Positions 2,386-45,139 of a DNA stretch of 64,000 nt are shown here, piece after piece; position 1 is the stretch's first letter, and every line of letters begins with the position of its first letter. The translations under genes were made by a program, and so were the position numbers. This stretch comes from an uncultured candidatus Porisulfidus sp. (lineage in GTDB: Bacteria > Pseudomonadota > Gammaproteobacteria > Poriferisulfidales > Poriferisulfidaceae). The stretch spans positions 142,426-206,425 of the forward strand of contig OZ251520.1 in the NCBI GenBank assembly GCA_965242985.1. The letters are read 5' to 3'. The notes under the pieces are model-generated. The model was not told where the DNA came from, did no database searches, and saw nothing but the letters and a program-made list of their open reading frames with translations.

Positions 2386-2934
2386 ATGGCCCTGCTGAAA
2401 GTCCTGCACTTCCCCGACCCGCGGCTGCGGCGCAAGGCGCGGCCGGTGGCGTCGGTCACCGACGAGACCCGCCGCATCGCCGACGACATGCTGGAGACCA
2501 TGTACGCCGAGCACGGCATCGGCCTGGCCGCGGTGCAGGTCAACATCGCGCAGCGCATCGTGGTCATCGACCTGAGCGAGGAGCGCGACCGGCCGCTGGT
2601 GCTGATCAACCCCGAGATCCTGGACGCCGGCGGCGAGGAGGAGATGGACGAGGGCTGCCTCTCGGTGCCGGGCTTCACCGCGCCGGTGCGGCGCCGCGAG
2701 CGGGTGCGCCTGCGCGCCCTCGACCGCGCCGGCGCGCCGTTCGAGCTGGACGCGGACGGCCTGCTGGCGGTGTGCGTCCAGCACGAGATCGACCACCTGA
2801 ACGGCAAGCTGTTCGTCGACTACCTGTCGCCGCTCAAGCGCGAGCGGATCGCGGACCAGCTGCGCAAGCAGGCGCGCCTCGGCACGCTCCCTAAGCGCAC
2901 CGAACGCCCGGCCGCCTACGAACGCCACCTCTGA
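2386..2934 (+). CDS. def: Peptide deformylase
   Basis: [16 protein letters not shown] and EGCLS metal-binding motifs. ATG at 2386 with GGAG 9 nt upstream. Confidence 0.9.
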
Positions 2935-2956
2935 GCGGCGCCCGCCCGCCCCCGCG

Positions 2957-3880
2957 TTGCGCCTGATCTTCGCCGGCAGCGGGCCGTTCGGCGCCGCCGT
3001 GCTGGACGCCCTGCTGCGCGGCCCGCGCGAGGTGGCCGCGGTCCTCTCCCGCCCGGACCGCCCGGCCGGCCGCGGCCGCCGGCTGCGCCCGACCCCGGTC
3101 AGCGAGCGCGCGGCGGCGGCCGGATTGCCGCTGCTGCGCCCCGAGCGCCTGGACGGCGCCGCGCGCGCCGAACTGGCCGCGCTCGGCGCCGACGTCCTGG
3201 CGGTGGCCGACTACGGCCGCCTGCTCCCCGCGGACTGGCTCGGCCTCTGCCCCGGCGGCTGCCTCAACGTGCACGCCTCGCTGCTGCCGCGCTGGCGCGG
3301 CGCGGCGCCGGTCGCGCGCGCCATCGAGGCCGGCGACGCCGAGGGCGGCTGCACCCTGATGCTGATGGACGCGGGGCTCGACACCGGCGACATCCTGCTG
3401 CAGCGGGCGCGGCCGTTCGCCGCCGGCGAGACCGCCGGCGAGGCCGCGGCGGCGCTGGCGCCGCTGGGCGCCGCGCTGCTGCTGCGGTATCTGGAGGACT
3501 TCGACCCCGCGCACCCGGGGCGGCGCCCGCAGGACGGCGCGCGCGCCACCGCCGCGCCGCTGCTGCGCAAGGCCGAGGCCGCCGTCGACTGGCGCCGGCC
3601 GGCGGCCGAAATCGCGCGCCGGATCCGCGCCTTCAACCCGCGCCCGGGCGCCGCCGCCCGCTGCGGGAGCGAGACCCTGCGGCTGTGGCGGGCGGACGCC
3701 GGCGCGGCCGCGCCCGGCGGCCCGCCGGGGACCGTCGTCGGCTGCGGCGCGGACGGCCTGCGCGTGGCGGCGGGCGACGGCCAGGTCCGCGTCACCGAAC
3801 TGCAGCGCCCGGGCCGGCGGCGGCTGCCGGCGGCGGCGTTCTGCCGCGGCGGGGACTGGGTCGGGCGGCGCTTCGCCTGA
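2957..3880 (+). CDS. fmt: Methionyl-tRNA formyltransferase
   Basis: N-terminal LIFAGSGPFG, SLLPRWRGAAP formyltransferase motif, C-terminal Fmt domain. TTG/alternative start at 2957, directly after def. Confidence 0.85.
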   Translation: MRLIFAGSGPFGAAVLDALLRGPREVAAVLSRPDRPAGRGRRLRPTPVSERAAAAGLPLLRPERLDGAARAELAALGADVLAVADYGRLLPADWLGLCPGGCLNVHASLLPRWRGAAPVARAIEAGDAEGGCTLMLMDAGLDTGDILLQRARPFAAGETAGEAAAALAPLGAALLLRYLEDFDPAHPGRRPQDGARATAAPLLRKAEAAVDWRRPAAEIARRIRAFNPRPGAAARCGSETLRLWRADAGAAAPGGPPGTVVGCGADGLRVAAGDGQVRVTELQRPGRRRLPAAAFCRGGDWVGRRFA

Positions 3881-3918
3881 GTAGAATGCACGCGTCTCGA
3901 ACCACCCGGAGCGCGAGC

Positions 3919-7970: not shown

Positions 7971-9332
7971 GTGAAGATCATCATCCTCGGCGCCGGCCGC
8001 ATCGGCAGCTCGCTGGCCATCGGGCTGACGCAGGAGAACAACGAGGTCACGCTGGTCGACCTGAACGAGCGGCTGCTGCGCAGCATCAGCAACCGCGTCG
8101 ACCTGCGCACCCTGCGCGGCCACGGCGCGCACCCCAACATCCTCGCCCAGGCCGGCGCCGAGAACGCCGACATGCTGGTCGCGCTGACCGCCAGCGACGA
8201 GGTCAACATGGTCGCCTGCCAGGTCGCCTACAGCCTGTTCAACGTCCCGCTGCGCATCGCCCGGGTGCGCGCCGCGGAGTACGTCCGCCACCCCGAGCTG
8301 TTCCATTCCGACACCCTGCCGGTCGACGTGCTGATCAGCCCGGAGCAGATCGCCTCGCGCAGCATCGAGCGGCTGATCCGCCAGCCCGGCGTGCTGCAGG
8401 TGATCGAATTCGCCGACGGCCTCGCGCAGCTGGCGGCGGTGCGGGTCGCGGCCGGCGCGCCGGCGGCCGGGCGCCGGCTGGCCGAGCTGCACGAGAGCCT
8501 GCCGAAGGTGCAGCTGCACGTGGCCGCGGTGTACCGCGACGGGCGGGCGGTGCGGCCGGACCCCGACCTGCGGCTGAAGGTGCACGACGAGGTGTTCGTG
8601 CTGGCCGCCGGCGACCAGCTGGGCCAGGTGATCGGCCGGCTGCGCGCGGACGTGCACGCCAGCCGCCACGTGCTGCTGGTCGGCGGCGGCAACATCGGCG
8701 GCAGCGTCGCCGCCGCGCTGGAGGGCGAGTTCCGGGTCAAGCTGATCGAGCGCGACGAGCGGCGCGCGCGCTACATGTCGGAGCAGCTGGCCGACACCCT
8801 GGTGCTGCACGGCGACGCCGCCGACGAGAACCTGATGCTGGACGAGAACCTGCGCGACATGGACGTGTTCTGCGCGCTCACCAACAGCGACGAGGCCAAC
8901 ATCCTGTCCGCGATGCAGGCCAAGCGCATGGGCGCCAACACCGTCATCGCGCTGATCAACCGCCCCTCCTACGTCGACTTGGTGGAGCGCTCCATCGACA
9001 TCGCGGTGTCGCCGCAGCAGGCGACCATGAGCGCGCTGCTGACGCACATCCGGCGCGGCGACGTGCTGTCCGTGCACTCCCTGCGCCGCGGCACGGCCGA
9101 GGCGCTCGAGGCGAAAGCGCACAACACCGCCGACGTGGTCGGGCGCCCGCTCGGCGCGCTCAGCCTGCCGGACAGCGTCGACATCGGCGCCCTGGTGCGC
9201 GGCCGCGAGCTGATCATCCCGGACGACGCCACCGTGATCAAGCCGGACGACCGCGTGATCCTGTTCGTCGGCGACAAGCGCCACATCCGCGACGTGGAGC
9301 GGCTGTTCCAGGTCAGCGCCACGTTCTTCTAG
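7971..9332 (+). CDS. trkA: Trk potassium uptake protein TrkA (two RCK/NAD-binding domains)
   Basis: MKIIILGAGRIGSSLA Rossmann motif at the N-terminus and a second copy (VLLVGGGNIGGSVA) mid-protein. GTG start. Confidence 0.9.
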   Translation: MKIIILGAGRIGSSLAIGLTQENNEVTLVDLNERLLRSISNRVDLRTLRGHGAHPNILAQAGAENADMLVALTASDEVNMVACQVAYSLFNVPLRIARVRAAEYVRHPELFHSDTLPVDVLISPEQIASRSIERLIRQPGVLQVIEFADGLAQLAAVRVAAGAPAAGRRLAELHESLPKVQLHVAAVYRDGRAVRPDPDLRLKVHDEVFVLAAGDQLGQVIGRLRADVHASRHVLLVGGGNIGGSVAAALEGEFRVKLIERDERRARYMSEQLADTLVLHGDAADENLMLDENLRDMDVFCALTNSDEANILSAMQAKRMGANTVIALINRPSYVDLVERSIDIAVSPQQATMSALLTHIRRGDVLSVHSLRRGTAEALEAKAHNTADVVGRPLGALSLPDSVDIGALVRGRELIIPDDATVIKPDDRVILFVGDKRHIRDVERLFQVSATFF

Positions 9333-40523: not shown

Positions 40524-41567
40524 ATGACCGGCGCGACCGCGCAGGCGGCCCCGTTCGCCTATCCCGCCACCCGCGCCGTCGAGGCCGGGCGGGCCGAGCA
40601 CACCGCCGCCGAGCGGGCGGCGCTGCGGGCGCGGGCGCGCGCGCTGCTGGCGCGCGAGGACGCGGCGCTGGTGGCGCACTACTACACCCACCCGGACCTG
40701 CAGGAGCTGGCCGACGAGACCGGCGGCGCGGTCGCCGATTCGCTGGAGATGGCGCGCTTCGGCGCGGCGCACCCGGCCTCCACCCTGCTGGTCGCCGGGG
40801 TGCGCTTCATGGGCGAGACGGCGAAGATCCTGAGCCCCGAGAAGCGCGTGCTGATGCCGTCGCTGGAAGCCGAGTGCTCGCTCGACCTCGGCTGCCCGAG
40901 CACGGCCTTCGACGCGTTCTGCGACGCCCACCCGGAGCGCACCGCGGTGGTCTACGCCAACACCAGCGCGGCGGTCAAGGCGCGCGCCGACTGGGTGGTC
41001 ACCTCGAGCTGCGCGGCGCGCATCCTCGCGCACCTGACGGACCGCGGCGAGAAGATCCTGTGGGCGCCCGACCGCCACCTGGGCCACTACCTGCAGCGGG
41101 TCACCGGCGCCGACATGGAGCTGTGGCCGGGCCACTGCGTGGTGCACGACGAGTTCAAGTCGCGCGCGCTCGGCGCGCTGGTGGCGGAACATCCGGACGC
41201 GGCCGTGCTGGTGCACCCGGAATCGCCCGAGGAGGTGATCGAGCTGGCCGACGTGGTCGGCTCCACCTCGCAGCTGATCGCCGCCTGCCGGGAGCTGCCG
41301 AACGAAGAGTTCATCGTCGCCACCGACCGGCGCATCTTCCACAAGATGCGGCAGGCCGCCCCGGGGCGGCGCTTCCTCGAGGCGCCGACCGCCGGCGAAG
41401 GCGCCACCTGCAAGAGCTGCGCGCACTGCCCGTGGATGGCGATGAACGACTTGGACCGGCTGATCGCGGCGCTGGAGACCGGCGCCGGCGAGATCGAGGT
41501 CGACGAGGAGGTGCGCGTGAAGGCGCTGCGCTCGACTCAGCGCATGATGGAGTTCACCGCGCACTGA
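40524..41567 (+). CDS. nadA: Quinolinate synthase A
   Basis: NadA type motifs ([24 protein letters not shown], Cys ligands CSLDLGCP...[10 protein letters not shown]). Confidence 0.85.
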
Positions 41568-41584
41568 GCGGAAACTATCGGAGC

Positions 41585-42262
41585 ATGAATTTGTTTGCCG
41601 CTCAAACAGGGCATCTGGTGCCCAGCACGCTTGCCCTGCTGATGACTCTCCTGCCCGGCTTTATCGCCGGGTCGGCTTTCTATTCGTTGACCGCCCATCC
41701 GAAACCCAGCGCATTTGAACGAATCGTGCAGGCCCTCATCTTCGCAGTCATTGTGCAGTTCTTGGTCGGTCCGTTAGGACTCGTCGCCAGAACCTCTGAA
41801 ACAGGCCTGTGGCCGAACATGGACGGGCAAGTGATCGTATCCGGCTTGTTTGCTATCGACGCGACCCTGTGGGCTTCGCCGATGCCGGACCTCGCCCGCA
41901 TTGCAACTGGTTTTCTGCTCGGTGTCCTCTTGGCGTGGACCATCAACCATGATTTTTTCCATCGCCTTATGCGGGAAATTGGGATAACAAAAGAAAATTC
42001 ATTCCCGTCGGAAATGTATTCTGCATTTTCCCGAATTCCGGCGTATGTCACCCTGCATCTCGGCGGAGAACGCCGCCTGATGGGGTTTCCTGAAGAATGG
42101 CCAAGCGACCCTCGCGCCGGACATTTTCTGCTTCAGGATCCCGCATGGATTGATGACGAAAACGAGCCCGTGCCGATAGAAGAAGTGGACAGCATAATGA
42201 TCTCCGTATCGGAGGTCAGCATGGTAGAATTCTCCCGTCCTCCCACAACCAGCAAGGAATAG
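41585..42262 (+). CDS. Hypothetical integral membrane protein (225 aa), lower-GC islet
   Basis: Four or five predicted TM helices (LVPSTLALLMTLLPGFIAGSAFY; IVQALIFAVIVQFLVGPLGLV; ...). GC ~55%. Followed 5 nt later by small ORF A. Confidence 0.6.
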   Translation: MNLFAAQTGHLVPSTLALLMTLLPGFIAGSAFYSLTAHPKPSAFERIVQALIFAVIVQFLVGPLGLVARTSETGLWPNMDGQVIVSGLFAIDATLWASPMPDLARIATGFLLGVLLAWTINHDFFHRLMREIGITKENSFPSEMYSAFSRIPAYVTLHLGGERRLMGFPEEWPSDPRAGHFLLQDPAWIDDENEPVPIEEVDSIMISVSEVSMVEFSRPPTTSKE

Positions 42263-42266
42263 ATCC

Positions 42267-42389
42267 ATGGCTAGAGAACCGCAATTGTTGCCCGGCGTGC
42301 CGCGGCAAAGAGGAATGTCCGAGCCCGGCGTTCGTCCGAAAAACTACGTTCGGCCAAAACCGCCGACAGCGCCTCCCCCCAAGAAATAA
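42267..42389 (+). CDS. Small basic Pro-rich peptide A (40 aa) ending in APPPKK
   Basis: ATG with AAGGA 8 nt upstream. MAREPQLLPGVPRQRGMSEPGVRPKNYVRPKPPTAPPPKK. Paralogous to peptide B. Confidence 0.4.
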   Translation: MAREPQLLPGVPRQRGMSEPGVRPKNYVRPKPPTAPPPKK

Positions 42390-42390
42390 A

Positions 42391-42543
42391 ATGACCGCAC
42401 GATCGAAATCGCCGGCAGGCGGGCGAGGGAAAGATGTTGCCCCGCATCGGCCGCCAGTGTCTGAGGTACAGGGCGGTGTAACACGAAAGCCGGAGGGCCT
42501 CCGACGCGGCAAGCCGTCACCGGCGCCGCCCCCAAAAAAATAA
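42391..42543 (+). CDS. Small basic Pro-rich peptide B (50 aa) ending in APPPKK
   Basis: ATG 1 nt after the stop of peptide A. MTARSKSPAGGRGKDVAPHRPPVSEVQGGVTRKPEGLRRGKPSPAPPPKK. The last 12 codons match A, with differences mostly at third positions. Confidence 0.4.
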   Translation: MTARSKSPAGGRGKDVAPHRPPVSEVQGGVTRKPEGLRRGKPSPAPPPKK

Positions 42544-42970
42544 ACTGGAAAGTTTCCGTTGCCGCACGTAATGCTGGAAGCGGGCCAAGGCCAGCACCAC
42601 CGGATAACCTGCTTGCCTACCACGCTAAGAGGCAATGCGAGCAGGTTGCAGCGACCAATGCCCGCACCAGTAAACTCTGCCCGCGCTTTAATCTGAACCG
42701 GCTCTCCAATTTCCTATAACTCCTCACGCAAATCTGCCAGTTGACTTGCTAGTGCAGTGCGCTCGACTTGGGCCAGCGATGTGTTGCTAGTTCTGGCATC
42801 GGACATAAAGTTCGTAGTTTCCTTTCAGCAACAACCCTGAGACGGAGACGGTATCCATCCGCGCACAGTTCGCGCAAACGCAGAACGACATCGACCAACT
42901 GCGTGAACAGCTCGCGGCCGCGAATGCACGCATCGATGAACTCCAGAAACGACTCGCCCCGCGCTGACGC

Positions 42971-45139
42971 TCAGGCGATATCCAGCGGATCCACCTCCAG
43001 GCTCCACTGCACCCCCCGGCGCCCCCCCGGCTCCCCCTTCGAAAGCCAGCCGTCCAGGCAGCGCTCCAGCGCCTTTCTCGATCGCGCCTTCAGCAACAGC
43101 TGCGCGCGCCACAGCCCGGCGCGCTTCGCCATCAGCGCCGGCGCCGGCCCCAGCACCGCGGCCTCGCCGCCGCGCAATTGCGCCCGCGCCCGCAGCAGGA
43201 ATTCCTCGGCGCGGCGGTAGTCCTCGTGCTGCGCCCGCACCAGCGCCCAGTAGCCGAACGGCGGCAGCGCCAGCTTCCGCCGCTCCCCGAGCAGCCGCTC
43301 CAGCCAGTCCTCGTAGCTGTCCGCCAGCAGCCGGCCGAGCAGCGGGTGCTCCGGCAGCGCGGTCTGCAGCAGCACCCGCCCGGGTTTGACGCCGCGCCCG
43401 GCCCGGCCCGACACCTGCACCAGCACCTGCGCCAGCTCCTCCGGCGCGCGCAGGCGCGGACTGAACAGCTGCCCGTCGATGTGCACGATGCCGACCAAGG
43501 TGACGTCGGGGAAGTCGTGGCCCTTGCACAGCATCTGCGTGCCCACCACCAGCTGGTAGTCGCCGCGGCGCAGCCGCTCCAGGCTGCGCTCGAGCTCGCC
43601 GCGGCGGCGGATGCGGTCGCGGTCCAAGCGCAGCACCGCGCAGTCCGGGAACTCCGCCCGCAGCCGGTCCTCGACCCGCTGCGTGCCCTGCCCCAGCAGC
43701 ACCGCGCCGTCCTCCAGCGCCGCGGCGGCCGGCTGCCGGAAGCCGCAGTGGTGGCACAGCGCCTGCTCGAGCGGGCGGTGGTAGACCAGGCAGGTCAGGC
43801 AGTGCGGACAATTCAGCGGCGCCTCCTCGCCCGGCAGGTACAGCGCCGGCGCGTAGCCGCGGCGGTTGAGGAACAGCATCGCCTGCTCGCCGCGGTCCAG
43901 CGTCTGCCGCAGCGCCGCCAGCAGCGGCGCCGACAGGCCGTCCTCCGCCGGATGGAGCCCGGTGTCGATCACTTCCAGCGCCGGCGCCGCGGCCGCGCCG
44001 GCGCGGTCCGGCAGGCTCAGGCGCCGGTACTTGCCGCTCTGGACGTTGCGCCAGGTCTCGATCGACGGCGTGGCCGTGCCCAGGATCACCGGCAGCCCGC
44101 CCTTCCAGGCGCGGTACACCGCCACGTCGCGGGCGTGGTAGCGGAAGCCCTCCTGCTGCTTGAGCGAGCCGTCGTGCTCCTCGTCGACGATGATCAGCCG
44201 CAGGTCGGCGAACGGCAGGAACACCGCCGAGCGGGTGCCGACCACCAGGTCCGCCGCGCCGCTCTGCGCCTGCAGCCAGGCCAGGTGCTGCTCGCGCGCG
44301 GTGCACTCCGAGTGGTAGACCGCGATGCGCACGCCCGCGTCCGCCGCCAGCCGGTCGCGCAGCTGCGGCACCAGGCCGATCTCCGGCGCCAGCACCAGCG
44401 CCTGCCCGCCGCGGGTCCGCAGTTCGGCCAGCGCCGCGCGGTAGACCTCGGTCTTGCCGCTGCCGGTGACGCCATGCAGCAGGGTGCAGCGGTATGCGCC
44501 GAGCCCGGCGCGCAGCTCGTCGACGGCGGCGCGCTGCGCCGGGTTGTGCGCGACGTCGGGCGGCGTCTTCGCCGGCGGCGGCGGCGGCAGGACCTGCACC
44601 GCCTCGGCCAGCCCCAGGGCGCGCAGCCGGCGCAGCTGCGCGCCCGGGTCCGGATGCACCGCGCACAGCTCCGCGAGGTCCAGCCCCGCGGGCGCGTCCG
44701 CCAGCGCCTCCAGCAGGCGCCGGCGCACCGGCGCGCGCCGGTGCGCCGCCGGCTCCTCGGCCCGGCCGGCCGCCGTCAGCCGCCAGCGGGCGGTCCCCGC
44801 CAGCGCCGCGCTCTCGCCGTGGCGCAGCCGCGCCGGCAGCGCCGCCTCCGCCACCAGGCCGACCGGGTGGCGGTAGTAGCCGGCCGCCCAGCGCACCAGG
44901 TCCAGCACGTCCTCGCCCACCGCCGGCGCCTCGTCCAGCGCGCGGCGGACGCGCTTCAGCGCGGGGCCGCCGGGCGGCGGCTCCCGGTGCTCCAGCACCA
45001 GGCCGATGCGGCTCTGGCGCCCGAACGGCACCAGCACCCGGCAGCCGGGCGGCGGCATCCCGCCGCGCTCCGGCGGCAGGTAGTCGTAGGCGTGGCGGAC
45101 CGGAACCCCGACGGCGACGCGCAGGCAGAGTTCCGGCAC
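42971..45139 (-). CDS. priA: Primosomal protein N' (replication restart helicase PriA)
   Basis: 3'BD N-terminus, Walker A GVTGSGKTEVY, DEEHD, Cys-rich zinc ribbon (CPHCLTCLVYH...CHHCG). 722 aa. Confidence 0.9.
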   Translation of the reverse strand: MPELCLRVAVGVPVRHAYDYLPPERGGMPPPGCRVLVPFGRQSRIGLVLEHREPPPGGPALKRVRRALDEAPAVGEDVLDLVRWAAGYYRHPVGLVAEAALPARLRHGESAALAGTARWRLTAAGRAEEPAAHRRAPVRRRLLEALADAPAGLDLAELCAVHPDPGAQLRRLRALGLAEAVQVLPPPPPAKTPPDVAHNPAQRAAVDELRAGLGAYRCTLLHGVTGSGKTEVYRAALAELRTRGGQALVLAPEIGLVPQLRDRLAADAGVRIAVYHSECTAREQHLAWLQAQSGAADLVVGTRSAVFLPFADLRLIIVDEEHDGSLKQQEGFRYHARDVAVYRAWKGGLPVILGTATPSIETWRNVQSGKYRRLSLPDRAGAAAAPALEVIDTGLHPAEDGLSAPLLAALRQTLDRGEQAMLFLNRRGYAPALYLPGEEAPLNCPHCLTCLVYHRPLEQALCHHCGFRQPAAAALEDGAVLLGQGTQRVEDRLRAEFPDCAVLRLDRDRIRRRGELERSLERLRRGDYQLVVGTQMLCKGHDFPDVTLVGIVHIDGQLFSPRLRAPEELAQVLVQVSGRAGRGVKPGRVLLQTALPEHPLLGRLLADSYEDWLERLLGERRKLALPPFGYWALVRAQHEDYRRAEEFLLRARAQLRGGEAAVLGPAPALMAKRAGLWRAQLLLKARSRKALERCLDGWLSKGEPGGRRGVQWSLEVDPLDIA

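Follow-up and report, generated by a model that had tools for sequence, protein, structure and literature searches.

A DUF6338 membrane protein gene followed by tandem polyproline-tailed microprotein genes: a widespread and seldom annotated bacterial cassette

Directly behind a membrane protein gene in a 64,000-nucleotide stretch of an uncultured candidatus Porisulfidus sp. (contig OZ251520.1, positions 142,426 to 206,425 of the forward strand; hereafter the window) lie two short open reading frames (sORF1 and sORF2) whose basic, proline-rich products end alike. The locus raises the question of whether these frames are genes at all and, if they are, what they do beside that membrane protein, which belongs to the family DUF6338. 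An earlier note on this DNA had proposed that they form a coding repeat under purifying selection and had not recognised their shared motif. Here we show that both are real genes and that the locus is a multi-copy, slightly degenerate example of a cassette, made up of DUF6338 and polyproline-tailed microproteins, that is widespread in bacteria. The features on which the argument rests are these (window coordinates; GC, guanine-plus-cytosine content).

41585 to 42262, plus strand: DUF6338 gene, 225 aa plus TAG stop, 54.7% GC
42254 to 42259, plus strand: AAGGAA, the Shine-Dalgarno sequence of sORF1, seen in the DNA itself
42267 to 42389, plus strand: sORF1, 40 aa, full sequence MAREPQLLPGVPRQRGMSEPGVRPKNYVRPKPPTAPPPKK
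42391 to 42543, plus strand: sORF2, 50 aa, full sequence MTARSKSPAGGRGKDVAPHRPPVSEVQGGVTRKPEGLRRGKPSPAPPPKK, tandem paralogue of sORF1

Two small genes under purifying selection

The layout agrees with the earlier description of a 225-aa multi-transmembrane (TM) protein of about 55% GC followed by tandem 40- and 50-codon frames with APPPKK ends, all of which are present in the sequence, the membrane protein having three hydrophobic segments. Spacing is tight throughout, with sORF1 starting 4 nt past the DUF6338 TAG (its ATG begins at the fifth nucleotide) and sORF2 starting 1 nt past the sORF1 TAA. The AAGGAA sits within the last two sense codons of the DUF6338 gene, 7 nt ahead of the sORF1 ATG, a placement that would fit translational coupling of sORF1, and equivalents of this site (GAGGAA or GGGAG) occur in a close relative, locus L004, and in the Vibrio locus L088.

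Both products are strongly basic, with isoelectric points (pI) of 11.5 for sORF1 and 11.7 for sORF2, and rich in proline (27.5% and 20%, respectively). Their C-terminal ends read ...RPKPPTAPPPKK in sORF1 and ...RGKPSPAPPPKK in sORF2, with APPPKK common to both (an example of the tail peptide is RKPPPPPAPPPKKK), and together with a motif in mid-peptide the pattern becomes GVRPKN...RPKPPTAPPPKK in sORF1 and GVTRKPE...GKPSPAPPPKK in sORF2. Across the shared tail, the last 13 codons of the two frames differ by 5 synonymous third-position and 3 non-synonymous changes, such that the earlier statement that the differences lie mainly at third positions was roughly right. Within sORF1 itself, a 20-nt direct repeat (42290-42309 and 42323-42342, 75% identity) encodes PGVPRQ and PGVRPK, and suggests that this frame may have grown through internal duplication.

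Selection was assessed with four metagenome loci (L001-L004) whose DUF6338 proteins are 77-89% identical to that of the window. Both sORFs are kept in frame in all four of these relatives, none of which carries the repeat without maintained reading frames, and the ratio of non-synonymous to synonymous substitution rates (dN/dS), calculated against L001, L002 and L004, is 0.035-0.13 for sORF1 and 0.25-0.49 for sORF2, with 0.15-0.26 for DUF6338 in the same comparisons. Substitutions in sORF1 fall at third positions in 8/9 cases against L001, 16/21 against L002 and 14/18 against L004. The second frame, which is in frame in L001, L002/L003 and L004, retains a conserved core, GVTRKPE...KPP.KPP.KK. 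The window sORFs are thus real genes under purifying selection, as the earlier note had proposed, and their translation in this organism is supported indirectly, by the Shine-Dalgarno site and by the dN/dS values.

The pairing across bacterial phyla

The membrane protein of the window matches Pfam DUF6338 (PF19865) over its full length, protein residues 14-221 aligning with positions 7-204 of the 205 in the profile (48 bits against a cut-off of 26.5, E 1.5e-12), and its homologues number at least 1914 clusters at E<=1e-10, all with PF19865. We sampled 80 DUF6338 loci, drawn from Chloroflexota, Planctomycetota, Binatia, Nitrospirota, Rhodothermales, Latescibacterota, Spirochaetes, Alpha-, Beta- and Gammaproteobacteria and others, whose proteins share 36-45% identity with that of the window. 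Where the DUF6338 stop could be placed, a same-strand frame of 31-55 aa starting -28 to +30 nt from that stop was found at 57/66 loci, a count that takes in the window and its four close relatives. Restricting the count to distant loci revealed an sORF in 50 of 61, against 0.0034 expected per equivalent site, as derived from the remainder of the same loci; 5 further loci of the 61 carry one once the DUF6338 stop is re-placed, giving 50-55/61. The commonest start offsets from the DUF6338 stop are +4/+5, -7 and -19 nt. The reverse test gave the same picture, with 5/5 of the sORF matches that were looked up sitting behind a DUF6338 gene (intact, frameshifted, truncated or uncalled), and the sORF is also present at Salmonella and Paludisphaera plasmid loci. 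In most of the phyla sampled, a microprotein gene lies at the DUF6338 stop codon. This conservation of the pairing supports a functional link between peptides and membrane protein, as implied in the earlier note.

The microproteins share a consensus, M-[SA]-K-[KE]-x-[SP]-N-P-P-P-P ... G-[VI]-N-x-G-A-N-V-N-P-P-P-P-x-N-V-[KR]-P-P-P-P-P-P-P-P-P-K-K, in which members from different phyla retain the motif G-[VI]-x-x-[KN]-P in mid-peptide. Median members have 45 aa, 35% proline and a net charge of +6.6, with proline runs of up to 13, and family members possess neither a hydrophobic nor a TM segment. The proline tails mix 3-4 different proline codons in 50/55 loci and therefore do not represent a DNA triplet repeat, and each alternative reading frame is open in only 5-22 of the 55. 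Like its counterparts, sORF1 of the window is encoded on the same strand, with its start less than about 30 nt from the end of DUF6338, falls within 30-60 aa and is basic and proline-rich with a K/R-ended tail; sORF2 (50 aa) shares the basic, proline-rich character, the K/R-ended tail and the mid-motif. Both align column for column with 38 other members of the family, and sORF1 aligns with 39, among which are peptides of Pseudomonas stutzeri that were detected by mass spectrometry (MS). Judged by this alignment, sORF1 is an orthologue of the microproteins found after DUF6338 genes elsewhere, and the motif that the earlier note did not recognise corresponds to a widespread microprotein family without a database model. 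The window peptides are slightly degenerate members: their first proline motifs are degenerate, their final tracts are short for the family, and their proline run is only 3 long (PPP), close to the minimum of the 2-13 seen in the family.

Translation of such peptides has been observed in P. stutzeri ATCC 14405, where 'operon 9' consists of the DUF6338 gene Pstu14405_RS12030 with SEP1, SEP5 and SEP2 directly downstream (PMC10433244). These three products were found in 2023 (Anal Chem) by digest-free MS, with 44-114 peptide-spectrum matches (PSMs) and 98-100% coverage, in a study that analysed no membrane fractions; SEP1 reads MVSSPGSGVQTNGANPPAPANVRPAMAPTAPPPPKK, and SEP5 and SEP2 are similar (PMC10433244). 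All three align with the DUF6338-associated family, such that homologous peptides are translated and accumulate in P. stutzeri, and these data are the only experimental evidence that peptides of this kind are made. Operon 9 resembles the window in having DUF6338 followed by tandem 36-47 aa basic, proline-rich frames, which end ...APPPPKK, ...PPPPPKRDSK and ...PPPPPKKGG, whereas in the window copies the proline runs are shorter and the N-terminal proline motif is degenerate. The authors considered the peptides to occur only in P. stutzeri and to be possibly newly evolved genes (PMC10433244). Our observation of the pairing in 50-55 of 61 loci across many phyla contradicts that species-specificity, and the literature is better corrected to an old, widely transferred pairing. 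Literature searches returned no other paper mentioning DUF6338 and no follow-up to that work; the sole precedent for the cassette is this one descriptive report, and the family-level picture (its distribution, integron mobility, Sm-like domain and conserved putative docking tail) appears to be new.

The family has largely escaped annotation. No Pfam or NCBIfam model matches the microproteins (the Pfam search was run on typical members), and a family profile searched exhaustively against 1.84 billion representative proteins recovered 45 called members, nearly all of 41-54 aa and aligned end to end, to be set against the at least 1914 DUF6338 clusters; we are dealing with a hidden gene family, whose cassette is almost never annotated. 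Both window sORF products are absent from the protein collections searched, including one of 15 billion proteins, and sORF1 has therefore never been annotated.

The microprotein genes travel with DUF6338 as a single unit, as seen most directly in Vibrio. At L088, L089 and L091 (5253-6249), DUF6338 and a 41-aa sORF make up one cassette of about 1 kb between attC-like repeats of about 123 nt, with the sORF stop codon lying within the downstream repeat. These repeats start TAACAAA, end GCGTTA and recur at least 10 times along the locus (L088, L089), which identifies a superintegron array, and the neighbouring cassettes vary from genome to genome. This integron assignment applies to the Vibrio relatives only. 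Elsewhere the surroundings are diverse: no third gene recurs among the frames flanking the 80 loci (two per side), 140 of which fall into about 135 Pfam families. Some 13% of 279 flanking frames match PADLOC models at E<=1e-8 (a rough tally of unique proteins from per-family counts), among them type IIG restriction-modification (RM), TIR, AriA, mad2/3/8, DrmMI, PglX, AbiLi, SoFic and ApeA. Single loci adjoin ApeA-HEPN together with a PIN toxin-antitoxin (TA) pair, a TIR and caspase within an integrase island, a type ISP RM enzyme, AAA_21 or ParE.

A proposed two-part membrane module and its rivals

Hydropathy analysis of DUF6338 revealed three strong hydrophobic segments, taken as three TM helices with a predicted N-out/C-in orientation, and the protein as a whole is acidic (pI 4.9). 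In an AlphaFold2 model built on 34 homologues (mean predicted local distance difference test score, pLDDT, 79), the TM helices are followed by a linker helix and a predicted five- to six-stranded barrel at residues ~143-217 (pLDDT 84-96). A Foldseek search of the PDB with this barrel gave 1th7_A as the top match (E 4.6e-4, target TM-score 0.76, root-mean-square deviation 2.9 A), and all of the top 50 PDB matches were Sm/LSm proteins; the modelled domain has the N-terminal helix and the strongly bent five-stranded barrel of that fold and superposes on Sm. Viral folds in BFVD likewise returned only Sm-like matches plus one weak full-length match. The best-conserved residues of the soluble domain form the beta2-beta3 loop, G-W-P-x-E-W-P-S-x-P-x-x-G-H-F. 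Sequence searches of the PDB with the DUF6338 and microprotein family profiles found no related entry, and PHROGs, PADLOC and NCBIfam searches with DUF6338 and both sORF products gave no match. DUF6338 thereby gains a predicted architecture of three TM helices and an Sm-like domain, and a candidate ligand.

Several known systems resemble parts of this arrangement. SH3 domains bind PxxP ligands with added basic residues, and an aromatic-rich loop on a five-stranded barrel facing a cationic proline motif flanked by K/R would be analogous to the recognition of polyproline-II ligands by SH3 and other small barrels, a group that includes the Sm fold. The DUF6338 barrel, however, best matches Sm/LSm proteins, normally RNA-binding rings, and not SH3, and its ligand would be a separate polypeptide, a microprotein whose proline runs far exceed those of typical SH3 ligands. 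MscS has three TM helices with the N-terminus outside, then a cytoplasmic Sm-like beta domain, and assembles as a ring. The predicted three TM helices, N-out/C-in orientation and cytoplasmic Sm-like barrel of DUF6338 are alike, and this analogy suggests that DUF6338 may form ring oligomers, although no MscS occurs among the top 50 Foldseek PDB matches and DUF6338 is without the alpha/beta C-terminal domain. AcrZ, MgtS, KdpF, CydX and CcoM are likewise proteins of at most 50 aa that are encoded beside a membrane protein, their presumed target, and that routinely go unannotated, but they are single hydrophobic TM helices, whereas the DUF6338 microproteins lack a TM segment and are hydrophilic and very basic, with a proline content of about 35%. 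As a compact two-gene unit with overlapping or abutting frames, carried as a single Vibrio integron cassette and often located beside TA or defence genes, the pair also recalls the TA cassettes of integrons and defence islands; it differs from type II TA systems in giving no TA or defence match in Pfam, NCBIfam or PADLOC and in having no DNA-binding antitoxin domain.

Taking these observations together, we favour, with about even confidence, the reading that the region is a horizontally acquired, self-contained cassette in which DUF6338 is joined by at least one translationally coupled, basic microprotein with a polyproline tail that docks on the barrel, and we infer that the microprotein functions as a protein partner specific to DUF6338. 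The tail, composed of K/R-P, the proline run and K/K, would form a cationic polyproline-II rod, and this rod is predicted to dock on the acidic, aromatic-rich beta2-beta3 loop of the cytoplasmic Sm/SH3-like barrel, with the more variable N-terminal half of the microprotein remaining free. Tandem paralogues, such as the window's two copies and a decayed further one, may be alternative partners with a common docking tail. A common docking site is suggested by the opposite charges of domain and peptide (mean net charge over 20 pairs, -6 for the DUF6338 C-terminal domain and +5.7 for the peptide) and by the invariant tail in multi-copy arrays. The concentration of DUF6338 conservation in the aromatic loop also supports docking. 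Of the options raised in the earlier note, small membrane-associated regulators come closest to this reading.

Weak support for docking also comes from an in-frame fusion of DUF6338 with an sORF, P0244, the one such case to emerge from an exhaustive profile search; in its AlphaFold2 model, for which the alignment contained no sORF sequences, the terminal polyproline tract has pLDDT 83-89 and the preceding 30 residues 60-69. A search with a fusion profile found no natural DUF6338-sORF fusion in its top 120 matches, and where DUF6338 has a long tail, it overlaps the start of the sORF out of frame.

The longest proline run is 8 in E. coli and 4 in B. subtilis, and members of the microprotein family reach 9-13. 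By analogy with EF-P-dependent and arrest peptides that contain consecutive-proline tracts (CadC, AmiB and the RAPP-class ApdA and ApdP), the tracts of the family, up to 13 long, should stall ribosomes and depend on elongation factor P (EF-P), and peptides that hold some of the longest bacterial proline runs could serve as natural probes of EF-P biology. More speculatively, runs of 8-13 prolines may tie synthesis of the microprotein to EF-P and elongation capacity, and the level of the microprotein may gate the membrane protein in inter-genome conflict; the combination of these runs with defence-gene neighbours is what leads us to consider that the pair may act there. If such gating were true, the cassette would be a previously unrecognised pan-bacterial two-component membrane system in which peptide supply reads out EF-P and elongation capacity. 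We regard it as distinctly unlikely that the cassette represents a new class of abortive-infection or conflict module gated by translation; here a cationic polyproline-II peptide would plug or hold an Sm-like ring on a membrane effector, and a disturbance of translation such as phage takeover would set that effector free. The presence of the pair in defence islands and in the Vibrio superintegron makes it a candidate for phage-defence or toxin screens, and integron cassettes of V. cholerae have reportedly been tested for phage defence in one study.

Several observations weigh against a dedicated docking partnership or its proposed role in conflict, or limit the support for them. At two loci the DUF6338 gene has decayed and the sORF frame is intact (L092 5430-5907 and L094 486-995), which is unexpected if the peptide only serves DUF6338. 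The fusion P0244 lies on a 1.2-kb contig, in a DUF6338 copy truncated at its N-terminus, and could reflect no more than decay, and the link between W168 to F in DUF6338 and shorter proline runs in the paired peptides, weak support for docking, comes from two independent lineages only. The EF-P argument is weaker for the window than for the wider family, since its peptides have only PPP. With respect to conflict, the enrichment in defence genes comes from a rough tally that had no matched control, most neighbours are housekeeping or metabolic genes, DUF6338 matches no PADLOC model, and tblastn of DUF6338 found it in 0 of 50,697 phage records and 1 of 72,556 plasmids. In Vibrio, the gap between the upstream repeat and the DUF6338 start is only about 17 nt, which leaves almost no room for a promoter of the cassette's own, unlike classical TA cassettes. 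Of the two decayed DUF6338 copies at L092 and L094, one carries a frameshift and the other lacks its N-terminal part and runs on in frame into the sORF.

Alternatively, the microproteins might only be co-expressed with DUF6338 and have their target elsewhere; basic, disordered and rich in proline, they might bind nucleic acid, the ribosome or DnaK, and the Sm-like domain would bind something else, for example RNA. Peptides with pI values of 11.5-11.7, the survival of the sORF at L092 and L094, and the match of the barrel to Sm folds, which classically bind RNA, all speak for such a target, but near-obligate adjacency with start/stop overlap across phyla is hard to obtain from co-regulation alone, which also explains poorly why the genes are mobilised together as one cassette, and the opposite charges and invariant array tails point to a docking site on DUF6338 itself. 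We consider this explanation unlikely, if with an appreciable chance of being right. The earlier note had also offered a peptide export or immunity pair, and one could accordingly imagine toxic or antimicrobial effectors (proline-rich antimicrobial peptides, PrAMPs, or bacteriocin-like) with DUF6338 as exporter or immunity protein, given cationic, proline-rich, tandem and diversifying copies, an adjoining membrane protein and cassettes in variable or defence regions. The peptides, however, carry no signal peptide, double-glycine leader or hydrophobic segment, the cassette holds no ABC transporter or peptidase, and three TM helices with an Sm-like barrel resemble no known exporter. Known ribosome-targeting PrAMPs carry PRP/PxP repeats, unlike the uninterrupted runs of 8-13 prolines here, and intact peptides were recovered from P. 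stutzeri by a study without membrane-fraction analysis, which leaves us to judge an antimicrobial role quite improbable.

It is also conceivable that the act of translation matters and not the peptide, with the sORF serving in cis as an EF-P-sensitive stalling frame that tunes mRNA stability or operon expression. Long proline runs are strong stall sites, reaching 9-13 in the family, and the C-terminal tract is the best-conserved part, with N-terminal halves that can be unrelated. Arrest peptides of the RAPP class lie upstream of the gene they regulate, whereas the DUF6338 sORFs lie downstream, usually last in the operon, with APPP and not RAPP in the tail, and are conserved as peptides: sORF1 is under strong purifying selection over its entire length, the mid-motif persists across phyla, the P. 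stutzeri products accumulate to 44-114 PSMs and the window tracts are only PPP. We give cis-acting stalling little chance. Short tandem paralogous frames might equally suggest precursors of ribosomally synthesized and post-translationally modified peptides (RiPPs), as the earlier note did, but no modifying enzyme, protease or transporter is present in the islet or recurs beside the 80 loci, which share no third gene, and conservation is inverted relative to such precursors, with a conserved C-terminus, a variable N-terminus and no conserved leader. The Cys, Ser and Thr patterns typical of the main RiPP classes are missing, and the P. stutzeri peptides, as a proxy, are full-length and unmodified at 98-100% coverage, making a RiPP cluster very improbable. 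Chance open frames within a non-coding C-rich repeat, such as a rut-like or structural element, would be in line with a C-rich plus strand and with a long antisense frame (42216-42635) that is also open in the window. Substitutions are frame-specific, however, the antisense frame is broken in L004, alternative frames are open in only 5-22 of 55 loci, proline codons are mixed, homologues have been seen by MS and no Rfam family matches, such that a non-coding repeat is effectively refuted and retains practically no probability. The docking partnership with DUF6338 remains the reading that we favour.

The islet, its close relatives and side observations

The cassette is contained entirely within an islet of lower GC between two convergent genes, and the islet also holds the remnant of a further paralogue:

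40524 to 41567, plus strand: nadA (quinolinate synthase), left flank, Pfam NadA E 2e-99
41570 to 42970, strand not assigned: lower-GC islet between nadA and priA, containing the entire cassette
42544 to 42830, strand not assigned: conserved stretch shared with L001 and absent from L004 (alignment and lists of open frames)
42842 to 42967, plus strand: pseudogene remnant, C-terminal coiled-coil part of a further paralogue
42971 to 45139, minus strand: priA (primosomal helicase), right flank, convergent with the cassette, Pfam PriA domains

The islet has 56.6% GC against 73.6% in nadA and 76.9% in priA, in agreement with its earlier description as a lower-GC islet. The 17 nt between the end of nadA and the DUF6338 start make co-transcription likely. 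Upstream nadA is shared by L001, L002 and L004, and downstream priA is also seen in L004.

The remnant, earlier described as a start-less coiled-coil frame, has lost its start, with in-frame stop codons upstream in the window, and is identical at 32 of 39 positions (82%) to the C-terminal 39 aa of an intact paralogue in L004 (5245-5538), a 98-aa protein with an sORF1-like N-terminus (MAKEPQLLPGVPRE...) and a coiled-coil tail; it is therefore a decayed further copy. L004 holds four sORF paralogues in total.

No plus-strand frame is consistently kept in the conserved stretch 42544-42830. A minus-strand 30-codon frame at 42714-42806, MSDARTSNTSLAQVERTALASQLADLREEL, whose first ~26 codons are conserved in L001 (minus-strand frame 2243-2482), could be a small gene or a remnant. 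The antisense 139-aa frame at 42216-42635, which overlaps the DUF6338 3' end in addition to being broken in L004, was rejected as a gene. Scans of the islet found nothing above threshold in Rfam, no convincing promoter or terminator and no inverted repeats. A sub-threshold match to the Xanthomonas small RNA family sX2 at 41547-41614 on the minus strand (20.5 bits against a gathering threshold of 40, E 0.14) covers the nadA stop and the DUF6338 start and is probably due to chance.

A phage or plasmid gene as the identity of the cassette was rejected on the tblastn counts given above. The only plasmid-borne DUF6338 (L093 442-3929), on the Paludisphaera plasmid PALBO2, lies right after a pair of genes for an ATP-binding protein and an S8 peptidase, with an integrase and a ParDE TA system nearby; the gene table has no entry for locus tag RS29610, located between DUF6338 and that integrase.

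Copy number and position of the sORFs vary further among the distant loci. Five tandem sORFs occur in a Planctomycetaceae locus (L037 4825-5620) and three in a Phycisphaerae locus (L007 4726-5233), with a C-terminal tail that is identical within each array (SPPPPPKK or QQPMSSPAPPPKK) and N-terminal halves that are unrelated. Two Rhodothermales loci (L021 3673-3879 and L049 3644-3877) possess an extra family-like sORF (...NANTTKPPPPPPPPAKK) upstream of DUF6338 besides the downstream one. Among the close relatives, L004 has an HNH endonuclease gene just past priA (7980-8579), and the islet of L001 is larger, with a third sORF (MAKEPQLLPGMPKKREY...) and, downstream of the sORFs on the minus strand (2608-3918), a gene for a 436-aa AAA_21 (AbiEii/OLD-like) ATPase, the contig ending ahead of any priA.

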